From: an uncultured virus (IMG/VR IMGVR_UViG_3300032138_000963)
Lineage: Duplodnaviria; Heunggongvirae; Uroviricota; Caudoviricetes
IMG/VR virus record: IMGVR_UViG_3300032138_000963
DNA: 44,186 bases
Strand: one strand, 5' to 3'
This document shows, one piece after another, positions 5,683 through 40,706 of the stretch. Made by a program: the position numbers and the translations under genes. A model generated the notes under the pieces. That model was not told the DNA's origin, made no database searches, and saw only the letters and a program-made list of their open reading frames with translations. Each line of letters starts with the position of its first letter. Position 1 is the first letter of the stretch.

Positions 5683-5952
5683 TTAGCGCAGTCGGCCGTT
5701 GTTGAGGGCCTGCTGAATCTTGATTGGGGTGGTGGTGTAGTAAATGCGCGCGCGCTCACTGCCGTCTGTGTCTTCGCGTACGAGAGTGAGGAAGCCTTCC
5801 TCTATGAGGCGACGTACGCTATTCGTGCGTCGCCTGTTGTAGGCGTGGACCGGAGGAAAGTCCCTCCTCTCAGGCTCCGCCTTCAGGCTGCGCCGAAGGT
5901 GACAGAGGAGCCACCAAGTATCGTGCCCGTACCGCTTGGGTTCGGTCTTCAT
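5683..5952 (-). CDS. possible winged-helix DNA-binding protein
   Basis: SVRRLIEEGFLTLVRE...RIYYTTT; AAGGAG RBS. Confidence 0.55.
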   Translation of the reverse strand: MKTEPKRYGHDTWWLLCHLRRSLKAEPERRDFPPVHAYNRRRTNSVRRLIEEGFLTLVREDTDGSERARIYYTTTPIKIQQALNNGRLR

Positions 5953-31334: not shown

Positions 31335-31702
31335 CTGAAGATCTCGATGTACTTCTCGATGGCCGCGGAAATAGGCCTCGTGTCTTCCGGCGCTTCCTGG
31401 TGCCAGTCCCACTTGACATAGGAAATTACCTGGATCCCGTTGAGCGGCATTTTTTCAGATGGTATGACCAAATAGTCGGACCATCTGAAAAACTTCGAGT
31501 CGATCACGCCGTCGTTCTTGTTGAGGATCTTGACCGAAAAGCCGACATAGTGGCATTGGGTAGGAATCCGTCCCGGGCCGCGAATGCTCAGCGTGATCTT
31601 CGCGCGACGCTCATTATCGATGGGTGCATACCCGGTCAGATCGAACCAGGCAATATCGATCTCCCACTTGAACGTGCGGCAAAACTCTTCCTTGCTGTTC
31701 AT
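31331..31702 (-). CDS. hypothetical protein (start MNSKEE)
   Basis: GAGGA RBS, ATGA overlap. Confidence 0.7.
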   Translation of the reverse strand: MNSKEEFCRTFKWEIDIAWFDLTGYAPIDNERRAKITLSIRGPGRIPTQCHYVGFSVKILNKNDGVIDSKFFRWSDYLVIPSEKMPLNGIQVISYVKWDWHQEAPEDTRPISAAIEKYIEIFR

Positions 31703-32106
31703 CGCGTCCTCGCATTCAGGGCTTCGCAAAGTCCGGCGGAGATCACCTTCTCATACCACCATGGGGGGTATCCCCCAGGACCGGTGCCGACCTTCTTCAC
31801 CTTGTCGCAGATCGCATTCCACTCCTCGTCGGTTTTAGCCGCTTTCAAAAGCGGCACTACGACGTCTGCGTCTGTGTAGTCCGTGCGATCCGGTTCGGTC
31901 ATCGGCACTTTTCTCAACTCACTCTCTTCGTATTCGTAGCCATCATCAGGGCACACCGCGTCCTCGAGCACCACCCCGTAGATGACCTTACCGAAATGCG
32001 GCGGATCAATTCGGACAACCACCCCCTCTTGAGGGTTGTCATCCTCGTCCAGCACGACGACATTGTCGCCGATCTGGAACCCACTACTCTTGGTGACGCT
32101 GGTCAT
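31699..32106 (-). CDS. protein with N-terminal SH3-like barrel (start MTSVTK)
   Basis: FQIGDNVVV...EGVVVRI...YGVVL...YEESELRKV; GGAG RBS. Confidence 0.65.
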   Translation of the reverse strand: MTSVTKSSGFQIGDNVVVLDEDDNPQEGVVVRIDPPHFGKVIYGVVLEDAVCPDDGYEYEESELRKVPMTEPDRTDYTDADVVVPLLKAAKTDEEWNAICDKVKKVGTGPGGYPPWWYEKVISAGLCEALNARTR

Positions 32107-32129
32107 TTTTACGCTCTCCGAAAAAAAAA

Positions 32130-32244
32130 GGCACCCCGGGCAAGGATTCGAACCTGCATAGCCATCTCGCTGCGTACGGGACTCGTTGGGCAGGCAACTG
32201 CCACCTACTTGAGTCACTGACGAGTTGCCAGCGAGTACCGGGGT
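32130..32244 (-). ncRNA. tRNA-like RNA with canonical acceptor stem and T-arm but non-canonical core
   Basis: ACCCCGG/CCGGGGT 7-bp stem, U8-A9, GCAGG-TTCGAAT-CCTTGC T-arm, 3' GCC then T9; internal rod CTCGCTG/CAGCGAG, ACTCGT/ACGAGT, GGCAG/CTGCC. Confidence 0.6.
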
Positions 32245-32251
32245 ATATGGG

Positions 32252-32620
32252 TCAGTTTAGGTCTCGAAAGTTCTCGTGATTGGGCCAGTAAATGCCCTTT
32301 TCGGCCATCGTCGTCAAGACCGCGGGCGCGACGGCGAGAATCTTGGAGGAGTACCACATCTCGTCCAGCTCGTCCTCTGACGCGTCGCGCATCGTGTCGG
32401 CAGCAGAGTCCCAGACCGTAGCGAACTCCTTGAGCGACATCGTCGTGTTGCCGATGCCGTAAGTGAACGTCAGGTCGCGCCACTGCGCCTGGAGGTAGAC
32501 CTTCCCGAAATCGTCGACGCCGGCGTAGATCTGATCAGCCGTGTACCCGAGCTGCCGAAAGAACTGCCAGGCACACAGCGCCTCGCGTACGACTCCTGAG
32601 AGATCTGCGAGCTTAGTCAC
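32252..32620 (-). CDS. hypothetical protein
   Basis: ORF tiling. Confidence 0.7.
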   Translation of the reverse strand: MTKLADLSGVVREALCAWQFFRQLGYTADQIYAGVDDFGKVYLQAQWRDLTFTYGIGNTTMSLKEFATVWDSAADTMRDASEDELDEMWYSSKILAVAPAVLTTMAEKGIYWPNHENFRDLN

Positions 32621-33839
32621 CGTTTTCCATCCGCTCGATGGCCTCGGGATCGATCTCGTTTCCGGTCACGTTCCAGGTTTCTGCCGGCGGGAAGAATCGG
32701 TCGCCGCGTTGGTTGTACCAAAACTCCGGAAGCTTCCCATCAGCCACCGTGATCAGGTGTAGCCAGTTGTGCTCGACGTAGTGAGCGATCACCGTCGCCA
32801 TTCCGATCTCTGGACGCGTTATTTTCACCCGGTCGCCCGGCATCGGGACAGGTGTCGGTCCCGACCAGTACACATCCTCCGGCTTGGCCAACGTCTTCCC
32901 GTTTCCGTTTTCATGGCCGGGATGCGCCGACCTGGGCAGCACCGCCTCGGGGTCGACGGCATGGTGTGTCGGATAGGCGATCAGGTAGATGTAGCCGTAC
33001 GAGCTATTCGTATTCCCCTTGATCGTGACAAATGCGTCGGAGAAGAGCGTGAAAGTCTTCGCCTCCCGATCTTCCATCCTCCACGTCTGATATCCGACTA
33101 TTTTCGAGAACGCTTCACGAATCGGGGTCGATGGCGGCTTGTCCTCCTCGTCCTCGAGGTCTTCGATGTAGTGGTGATGGCCGCACGAATCGCAGACCCA
33201 CGCATCGAAATCCATGTAGCAGCCCTCCCATTTTCCGCGAACCTTTTTGAACTCCTGGTCGCAGTCCTCGCCCTCCTCCTCGTCCTCGTCGTATTCGTTC
33301 TCGCAGTAACTTGGAGGATCCGGCGGAGGATCTTCCTCGCCTTCCAGCTGCTTTCGCTCCCACTCCTTGTCGTAGGCCTCTTGTCGTTTCGTCTCCCGCT
33401 CGAGCGCTCCGTAGAGCCAGCGTGGATCTGTATCCACCGGATTTTCCGGCACACCGTAGGCTTCCGGCGCGCTGAACCCACTGCCGATGGCACCCCACGA
33501 CGCGAACAGCTCCGGCTCCTCCCGCTTCCGTCGGTACCAGTAGTCTCGAAGCTGCGCCTCTGACAAATCCTTGTACGGATACCAGCCGTCACGCAAACGC
33601 TTGGCCTCTTCAATGGCGCGAGGGAGTGCCCCATCGAGCGCCTTCTTGAAAGCCGCGCGCAGCTCCTTCGGACCCGCCCAAGTTTGCCGATCCGGCAACA
33701 GGCTGAAGCCGCACCCTTGGTCGGCGATAGCTCGCGCTCCCCATGCAACCGGCGCATCTTCAGGGCATTCGTTCCACAGGCCAAACGACCAGGACTTATC
33801 CAGGTCGTCGTGTATCTTCTTTGCGGCACTCATATTCAC
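32613..33839 (-). CDS. multidomain hypothetical protein (acidic tract, Zn ribbon, C-terminal SH3-like)
   Basis: 408-aa ORF; WVCDSCGH; PMPGDRVKI...IGMATV. Confidence 0.7.
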   Translation of the reverse strand: MNMSAAKKIHDDLDKSWSFGLWNECPEDAPVAWGARAIADQGCGFSLLPDRQTWAGPKELRAAFKKALDGALPRAIEEAKRLRDGWYPYKDLSEAQLRDYWYRRKREEPELFASWGAIGSGFSAPEAYGVPENPVDTDPRWLYGALERETKRQEAYDKEWERKQLEGEEDPPPDPPSYCENEYDEDEEEGEDCDQEFKKVRGKWEGCYMDFDAWVCDSCGHHHYIEDLEDEEDKPPSTPIREAFSKIVGYQTWRMEDREAKTFTLFSDAFVTIKGNTNSSYGYIYLIAYPTHHAVDPEAVLPRSAHPGHENGNGKTLAKPEDVYWSGPTPVPMPGDRVKITRPEIGMATVIAHYVEHNWLHLITVADGKLPEFWYNQRGDRFFPPAETWNVTGNEIDPEAIERMENGD

Positions 33840-35801: not shown

Positions 35802-35970
35802 CCCCACTTTTCCCTCCTTCGACCGGGTCCAGCTCATCCAGTTCCAGCTGAGCCTTAACCCACTCCCAGTAGCCTAAAGTCGTGTCACTGTTAGCCACTT
35901 CGTATTTCCAATCTTCGCGCGGAAACTGAGGATGCGAACCCCAGTGGCCGTATTCATCTTGCAACCCCAT
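35785..35970 (-). CDS. small hypothetical protein
   Basis: WGSHPQFPREDWKYEVANSDTTLGYWEWV; GGAGG RBS. Confidence 0.75.
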   Translation of the reverse strand: MGLQDEYGHWGSHPQFPREDWKYEVANSDTTLGYWEWVKAQLELDELDPVEGGKSGDEQQD

Positions 35971-40659: not shown

Positions 40660-40685
40660 AAAAAACGGGAGCCCGAAGGCTCCCG
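40660..40685 (-). terminator. intrinsic terminator, possibly conditional (attenuator)
   Basis: CGGGAGCC-TTCG-GGCTCCCG then TTTTTT. Confidence 0.8.
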
Positions 40686-40706
40686 CTGGTGTTTCAGCTG
40701 AGTTGA

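Follow-up and report, generated by a model that had tools for sequence, protein, structure and literature searches.

Several small RNAs borrow the architecture of transfer RNA (tRNA) for purposes other than decoding: the stable RNA species 1 and 2 of the phage T4 tRNA cluster and the mammalian mascRNA are tRNA-like, non-decoding RNAs that are cut from longer transcripts by the tRNA-processing enzymes. In plant mitochondria, the so-called t-elements are non-canonical tRNA-like folds that retain the sequence GGTTCRANYCC and direct the RNase P and RNase Z cuts, either demonstrated or argued for, that make messenger RNA (mRNA) ends (Forner et al. 2007, PMC1920247). The element considered here occupies the minus strand from position 32,244 down to 32,130 of a 44,186-nucleotide (nt) stretch of DNA, hereafter the window, from the uncultured virus IMGVR_UViG_3300032138_000963 in IMG/VR. 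It is a real, tRNA-derived feature, either a tRNA remnant or a t-element-like signal, and a singleton without evidence of selection. Newly recognized here are the apparent tRNA-Arg(UCU) identity of its two ends and what appears, from alignment, to be a truncated second copy inside it. The tentatively favored reading, held at somewhat less than an even chance, is that of a tRNA-like signal that acts in cis on processing and termination; a mere relic of a tRNA gene is almost equally likely.

With position 1 set at 32244 and the numbering running down to 32130 on the minus strand, the letters and segmentation of the element agree exactly with those given in a preliminary description of the locus, which had been prepared from the letters alone. 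That description called the acceptor stem, U8 and T-loop tRNA-like, and so they are: all 7 base pairs (bp) of the acceptor stem are Watson–Crick, followed by T8-A9, the T-loop is exact, and the discriminator is G73 (Table 1). A thymidine stands at position −1 (32245). The window has a single exact copy of the T-loop motif GGTTCGAATCC; when two mismatches are tolerated, 23 matches are obtained where 19.0 are expected, such that only the exact copy stands out. A second near-T-loop, at 35930–35940, falls within an open reading frame (ORF). A scan for an acceptor stem plus T arm returned one match in a reversed-sequence control of 496 kilobases (kb), and the top half is therefore no chance match. 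The canonical lower half is missing. The D arm is not formed, as CTCG opposes CTCG, and, as had been anticipated, the C-T-C-A-A-G-T at raw positions 32–38, which resembles a Leu-CAA anticodon loop, cannot be closed by an anticodon stem, since positions 27–31 do not pair with 39–43.

The element is thus tRNA-like but unable to serve as a decoding tRNA. It possesses the acceptor stem, U8 and discriminator of a canonical tRNA and lacks the D and anticodon arms and a qualifying covariance-model score; its T arm has an exact TTCRANY loop, but a 3′ strand of 6 nt (CCTTGC). ARAGORN, from which a pseudogene call or none had been predicted, finds no tRNA or transfer-messenger RNA (tmRNA) in the window and still reports 0 genes in its tRNA and tmRNA modes with lowered thresholds. 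Rfam is equally silent: release 15 yields nothing at gathering thresholds, and no match to the tRNA clan at E ≤ 10 on 501 nt. An intron-containing tRNA was considered and rejected, as ARAGORN makes no call when introns are allowed, and none of 3,615 variants carrying single deletions of 1–55 nt was called. When the extra T in the T stem was also deleted in silico, 123 of 3,069 deletion variants were called, none of them as Arg. The known Rfam family or interrupted tRNA to which the locus might have been reduced did not materialize. A G3-U70 pair defines alanine charging. The element is not a tmRNA, as originally argued, for its 3–70 pair is C-G, it has no tag reading frame, and ARAGORN and Rfam make no call; nor is it permuted in the manner of the YrlA Y RNA, since both of its ends lie in the acceptor stem, rather than in a long stem opposite a tRNA-like module, and it has no Rfam match. 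Acceptor/T-stem registers of 8/4 and 9/3 are reportedly known from allo-tRNAs; both were rejected here, as hand inspection of the element revealed no such pairing.

The provenance of the two ends emerges from a scan in which each prokaryotic species was represented by one genome. The pattern joined the T arm to the acceptor 3′ strand and left either one base or two unspecified at the site of the extra T. The scan retrieved 115 bacterial loci, all of the canonical one-base form, and the 3′ 24 nt of the element, minus the extra T, are identical to all of them. ARAGORN calls tRNA genes at 107 of the 115 loci, comprising 94 tRNA-Arg(TCT), 9 Arg(CCT), 1 Arg(TCG) and 3 others. The resemblance extends to the 5′ end, where the bacterial genes begin GCCCCGGTAGCTCAGCTGG... 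and the element ACCCCGGTA-CTC-GCTGG, and to the GCC tail, which the element has in common with 14 of the 115 bacterial genes (GCCA in 10, GCCT in 4). The matching 5′ starts, 3′ block and GCC tail therefore identify both ends of the element as those of a tRNA-Arg(UCU)-type gene. As a side observation, most of the matching tRNA-Arg genes place G1 opposite T72, forming a G-U pair, while an A1-T72 pair is found in the element and in one Kiritimatiellae gene (L105).

A further trace of the same gene lies in the interior. Positions 37–58 (GTAGGTGGCAGTTGCCTGCCC) align to the tRNA-Arg sequence GTAGGTCGCAGGTTCGAATCCTGCCC, in which the variable loop and T arm lead into the first bases of the acceptor 3′ strand; 20 positions match, one is mismatched and 5 nt are deleted. 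The alignment, with interior positions 36–86 as the query, scores 23 against a null of 14.0 ± 2.2. None of 300 dinucleotide shuffles attained this score, while with another scoring scheme 7 of 300 did, and the tip hairpin is therefore a truncated first T arm. As a result, the 3′ part of a tRNA is present twice in the element, 29 nt apart. The tRNA-Arg ends and the truncated T-arm copy together point to a rearranged tRNA-Arg(UCU)-type gene, rather than a mimic built de novo, as the probable ancestor of the element, and on sequence grounds this derivation is held with good confidence. The earlier case for a novel RNA rather than decay is hence not borne out in the form in which it was made, given that the tip hairpin is a truncated tRNA-Arg T-arm copy and both ends are of the tRNA-Arg(UCU) type.

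The predicted fold is only partly that of the original proposal, which envisaged a perfect top half above a branched rod of roughly 70 nt whose stems were perfectly paired. The acceptor stem and T-loop uphold the first part, with acceptor pair probabilities of 0.84–1.00 with or without flanks of up to 150 nt, and of 0.89–1.00 with the full 150 nt. The T stem does not: GCAGG opposes CCTTGC, and the stem can close only if a single U bulges out or if a G-U pair is admitted and the loop measures 8 nt. Its outer three pairs have probabilities of 0.66–0.87, again with or without flanks, and the two loop-proximal pairs are split between two registers. Within the rod, the outer helix (~0.7) and the tip hairpin (~0.44) are recovered, but the middle helix ACTCGT/ACGAGT has a probability of ~0.01, because GAGUC (61–65) prefers to pair with GACUC (30–34), with a probability of ~0.7. 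This alternative pairing buries the "CAA anticodon". In energetic terms, the structure originally proposed lies at −36.9 kcal/mol, 6.3 kcal/mol above the minimum free energy (MFE) structure at −43.2 kcal/mol. The body, or interior, has an MFE z of −1.72, with 60 of 1000 shuffles as low, and Watson–Crick pairs in helices of at least 5 bp number 17 against a shuffle mean of 3.6, a count that was made post hoc and is reached by 3 of 1000 shuffles. The contention that perfectly paired replacement stems mark a novel noncoding RNA rather than decay therefore falters, as one of the three stems is not the preferred pairing.

The element may be a plain relic, in which a phage tRNA-Arg(UCU) gene, or two tandem copies of one, was recently wrecked by partial duplication or template switching plus a 1-nt insertion, under no selection; its T9 would then be the terminator of the old gene or incidental. 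This is a possible history that falls moderately short of an even chance. One or two template-switch or duplication events could yield perfect helices without selection, and a templated duplication, rather than slow compensation, predicts what is seen, namely 18 of 18 stem pairs that are Watson–Crick, with no G-U. Also congruent with a relic are an interior that is a truncated duplicate of the tRNA 3′ part, the extra T in the T stem, the loss of D and anticodon stems together with the lack of any detector call, the weak folding z-scores, and the status of the element as a singleton with no relatives in any collection searched. However, phage genomes quickly shed useless DNA, and here 36 end-processing nt are intact while the body is scrambled, with at least 5 insertions or deletions relative to tRNA-Arg. 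Moreover, A1 restores Watson–Crick pairing to U72, the first base being G in most of the matching bacterial genes, and genuine tRNA genes that share this 3′ end seldom have a T tract next to it, only 2 of the 115 being followed within 16 nt by a run of five or more T.

The identity of the 3′ 24 nt, save one extra T, to tRNA-Arg genes, many of which belong to Planctomycetota, Saccharibacteria and Solirubrobacterales, with others besides, along with the presence of the tRNA 3′ part in two copies, might also suggest a recombination scar or attachment (att)-type site, at which an integrase exchanges, or once exchanged, DNA with the tRNA-Arg(UCU) gene of a host. Such an origin is quite improbable. 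No integrase or recombinase domain was detected by Pfam in the 97 ORFs of the window, which covers 44 of the 168.6 kb of the contig; the element is situated inside a one-directional array of phage early-type ORFs; and neither T8-A9 nor a 5′ acceptor strand that matches would be required in a phage attachment site.

The intact top half and GCC tail likewise lend themselves to a role in trans, as a decoy or sponge for host factors that read the acceptor and T arm, such as tRNA-targeting defense nucleases, the CCA-adding enzyme or EF-Tu-like binders; a decoy was also the leading idea of the preliminary description. There is precedent in phage tRNAs that reportedly counter tRNA-cleaving defenses (PMC10264068). 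Yet it is the anticodon loop that known anticodon nucleases recognize, and the element lacks one, the CUCAA being paired in the predicted fold; it has neither its own promoter, nor conservation, nor a nearby partner gene of known tRNA function. A trans-acting mimic is accordingly an improbable explanation.

The transcriptional setting bears on the favored reading of the element as a cis-acting signal. The element has the same orientation as the genes around it and begins 7 nt beyond the stop codon of a 122-amino acid (aa) ORF, in a 145-nt gap between two minus-strand ORFs, and no promoter-like site was found in 31500–33000. Its T9 is the sole run of eight or more T in all 44,186 bases; it follows the acceptor helix, with 6 of 7 pairs G-C, and the intervening GCC. 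A simple terminator scan made no call at T9, because loops longer than 8 nt are beyond its limit. Elsewhere the phage does use a canonical intrinsic terminator, the one clear example in the half of the window that was scanned lying at 40664–40687. An archaeal or eukaryotic-virus reading of the T run was rejected in view of the Shine–Dalgarno sites, the overlapping starts and stops, the bacterial-type terminator, and genome matches that are bacterial in 115 of 115 cases.

The element also retains the features that matter for end processing: U−1, the 7-bp acceptor stem, U8, a canonical T-loop and G73-C74-C75. The usual bacterial RNase P determinants are U−1, a 7-bp helix and G73-C74-C75, the last through RCC pairing. 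Its D and anticodon arms have given way to a helix-rich 70-nt body, within which the variable loop and T arm occur a second time in truncated form. Under the cis-acting reading, the element would be transcribed as the tail of the upstream operon, and its top half, folded in cis, would serve as tRNA-like punctuation at the operon end. The GC-rich acceptor helix with GCC-U9 may cause pausing or partial termination, and an RNase P cut 5′ of A1 would set the 3′ end of the upstream mRNA. An RNA of ~115 nt would thereby be released, its 3′ end trimmed and completed to CCA, and this RNA would presumably be neither aminoacylated nor used in decoding.

A number of observations weigh against this signal reading and the tRNA ancestry on which it builds. 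No homologue of the element was found in the collections searched, and thus no conservation or covariation evidence supports it. The MFE of the whole element is unremarkable (z = −1.48), and a single inverted duplication could have generated the perfect helices with no need of selection. The D/anticodon part bears no significant likeness to tRNA (its score was equaled in 288 and 264 of 300 shuffles), the interior as a whole is marginally similar to tRNA (6, 10 and 15 of 300 shuffles as high), and the two halves, or T-arm copies, of the element are not significantly alike (1973 of 2000 and 1016 of 2000 shuffles as high). The extra T-stem nucleotide may disturb the 12-bp acceptor/T stack that is measured by RNase P. 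As a terminator the arrangement is atypical, since U9 begins 3 nt past a helix that closes a domain of about 98–112 nt. Lastly, the Shine–Dalgarno sequence of the next gene directly follows U9, with no promoter between; an efficient terminator would therefore silence the downstream genes, and termination could only be partial.

The same junction raises the question of whether the locus is coding. The U9 end of the element lies 15 nt ahead of the ATG of the downstream 135-aa ORF, and a GTG at 32217, in frame with ATG 32106, opens a frame to 31699 (172 aa) that could add an N-terminal extension to the downstream protein. This is hard to credit. No Shine–Dalgarno sequence precedes GTG 32217, whereas a good one, GGAGAG, stands 7 nt ahead of ATG 32106; an open run of 37 codons arises by chance about 1 time in 6; and a coding function leaves the tRNA-identical ends and T9 unexplained. 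The homologue search, which gave no matches, could not settle the start: the 135-aa ORF has no homologue among 5.8 billion proteins, from which the ORF itself was likewise not returned, and gene calling at the source may have passed it over.

Relatives of the element were sought widely. Among INPHARED phages, neither megablast with 1 kb nor blastn with 4 kb found a homologue, and blastn with the 130-nt element at E ≤ 10 returned only 25–40-nt T-arm matches to phage tRNAs (36 records). In IMG/VR, 0 loci were obtained with an exact 25-mer, with the 122-aa protein, with the 408-aa protein encoded next to it, or with a 12-member alignment of the 122-aa family. A metagenome scan with an alignment of 17 sequences of the 408-aa family produced 74 loci (452 kb). 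Neither these loci nor the remainder of the window repeats the interior of the element. By tblastn, the 122-aa and 135-aa neighbors have no homologue in any of the 74 loci, and the exonuclease encoded in the window has one in L002 only; synteny is therefore not kept. A keyword search of open-access text found no description of such a phage element.

The 452 kb do contain three other acceptor-plus-T-arm elements with odd bodies, for which ARAGORN at default settings and Rfam give no call. The first, at L003, is flanked on one side by a 195-aa ORF that stops at 5806 and on the other by a small ORF, which immediately precedes the gene of a 409-aa homologue. The 5′ strand of its acceptor stem, GGTCCGGT, is found again as GGTCCCGGT right ahead of the T arm, and a partial internal duplication is therefore likely. 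The second has the same sequence on two contigs of 65.6 and 123.5 kb (L018 and L020), and is called by ARAGORN only with introns and lowered thresholds, as "Tyr" with a 61-nt intron. The third, at L068, bears a 4-bp stem with a 5-nt loop in place of the anticodon arm, and again is called only with introns and lowered thresholds. The bodies of all three are unlike that of the element, which bespeaks a recurring theme, not homology. A link between the 408-aa gene and a tRNA-like RNA was dropped, as such an element lies beside the gene only in L003 of the 14 closest loci. A full-length tmRNA occurs at L011, a related phage contig, 1.5 kb downstream of a 408-aa homologue on the same strand; it and its neighboring ORFs were set aside as unrelated to the element and to the 122-aa protein, and a 17-nt match at L011:7434 was rejected as coding. 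A broader and rather unlikely proposition is that uncultured phages of large size remodel tRNA genes of their own into mimics that lack an anticodon, here a tRNA-Arg top half on a rod, and that these are selected for recruiting RNase P and the CCA machinery and for ending early-operon transcription at a defined point. On this view the released RNA of ~115 nt could also titrate some host factor specific for the acceptor/T-arm half of tRNA, and the elements of L003, L018/L020 and L068 would be further members of an uncharted phage class of t-elements.

The source of the window is a large uncultured marine phage. The window makes up 44,186 nt of a 168,626-bp contig, as identified by the self-match of the 408-aa neighbor protein, and the only sequencing run found to contain its sequence, a DNA run with no RNA run listed beside it, is a marine metagenome and probably the source; in its contigs no variant of the element was found, the matches being the source contig only. 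It is laid out as a one-directional row of small orphan ORFs with a G+C content of ~58%. Among 85 minus-strand ORFs, four matches pass Pfam's own cut-off (a Dda-like helicase, an RNase T-type exonuclease, SprT-like and DUF3228), and a fifth, to TMEM106_N, is under Pfam's score cut-off; PHROGs gives the helicase and exonuclease assignments as well. Pfam and PHROG scans of the window revealed no partner gene of known tRNA function near the element. The 122-aa protein has no match in Pfam or PHROG, and belongs to a family of 110 representatives (E ≤ 1e-3, 50% clustering; best identities 84%, 63% and 58%) with a conserved GIYWPxH motif at the protein end. The 408-aa protein has 21 relatives at 37–63% identity and no Pfam or PHROG family; C23, C177, C191, C214, C217 and a TNASHGY motif are conserved, and the genes next to it differ from contig to contig.

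Table 1. Coordinates of the element, of its surroundings in the window, and of tRNA-like features on metagenome loci (designated L). Raw positions count from 32244.
Feature	Position	Strand	Description
Acceptor-stem 5′ strand ACCCCGG	32238..32244	−	Positions 1–7; pairs with 32133–32139
T8-A9 linker	32236..32237	−	Same in bacterial tRNA-Arg genes with identical ends, which start GCCCCGGTAGCTCAG...
Body, 70 nt	32166..32235	−	Positions 10–79; outer 7-bp helix CTCGCTG/CAGCGAG; inner pairing ambiguous; no D/anticodon stem
Truncated first copy: variable loop, T arm and acceptor 3′ start	32187..32208	−	Positions 37–58; tip hairpin GGCAG-TTGC-CTGCC
Second T arm, loop intact: GCAGG-TTCGAAT-CCTTGC	32140..32157	−	Positions 88–105; one extra T in 3′ strand
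Acceptor-stem 3′ strand CCGGGGT	32133..32139	−	Positions 106–112
G73-C74-C75	32130..32132	−	Position 76 is T, not A
T9 tract, putative termination site	32121..32129	−	3 nt past acceptor stem
Upstream ORF, 122 aa	32252..32620	−	TGA stop 32252–32254, 7 nt ahead of element; from ORF list and sequence
408-aa protein gene	32613–33839	−	Neighbor of 122-aa ORF
Downstream ORF, 135 aa	31699..32106	−	ATG 32106; Shine–Dalgarno GGAGAG 32114–32119, directly after T9
Canonical intrinsic terminator	40664–40687	−	10-bp stem (7 G-C), TTCG loop, T run; in 301-nt gap
Acceptor-plus-T-arm element, 112 nt	L003:5812–5923 (or to 5928)	+	Ends in ACCA
150-nt element	L018:10718–10867 and L020:10718–10867	+	7-bp acceptor helix, perfect GTGAG-TTCGATT-CTCAC T arm, three internal hairpins
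tRNA-like gene, 100 nt	L068:3601–3700 (or to 3706)	+	Class-II-type D arm, encoded ACCA, 6-bp long extra arm
Full-length tmRNA	L011:5456–5805	+	Rfam 131 bits; tag AVNDNVYGSAAVAA

The significance of the element depends on which history applies. If selected, it would constitute a phage counterpart of the organellar t-elements, a tRNA gene recycled as a processing and termination signal, and would add to the scattered signs of non-decoding tRNA look-alikes in uncultured large phages that are missed by standard tRNA finders. If a relic, it offers a clear example of phage tRNA gene breakage, with 3′ duplication, insertions and deletions, and an intact top half, and helps annotators tell tRNA fragments from genes. 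Under either history, ends identical to tRNA-Arg(UCU) of Planctomycetota and a few other phyla provide a weak host clue for an orphan 168-kb marine phage.

Set beside known systems, the element resembles a bacterial or phage tRNA-Arg(UCU) (RF00005) in its acceptor stem, T8-A9, T-loop, T-stem sequence, acceptor 3′ strand and G73-C74-C75, but is 36–40 nt too long, carries an extra T-stem nucleotide, and has no D or anticodon arms and no A76. With the tRNA-like domain of tmRNA (RF00023 and relatives, including forms without the coding part) it shares the combination of an acceptor stem and T arm with a long helix in the place of the anticodon arm; unlike tmRNA, it has C3-G70 rather than G-U, no tag frame and no pseudoknots, and measures 115 rather than ~350 nt. 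Displaced or duplicated tRNA 3′ fragments are reportedly left behind by integrative elements and broken tRNA genes. Like these, the element has two copies of a tRNA 3′ part, which agrees with that of bacterial tRNA genes, whereas its copies are 29 nt apart in one hairpin-rich unit closed by a perfect acceptor helix, in a window where no integrase was found. The t-elements are organellar, ~70–75 nt long and cloverleaf-like (PMC1920247), in contrast to this phage-borne element of 115 nt, which has a rod-like body and abuts U9. The two have in common a GGTTCRANYCC T-loop, an acceptor-like stem, a non-canonical fold and a location beside an mRNA end (PMC1920247). In the element, the motif is exact, the stem is perfect, and the whole begins 7 nt after a stop codon, just as the sequence and position of a t-element would have it.

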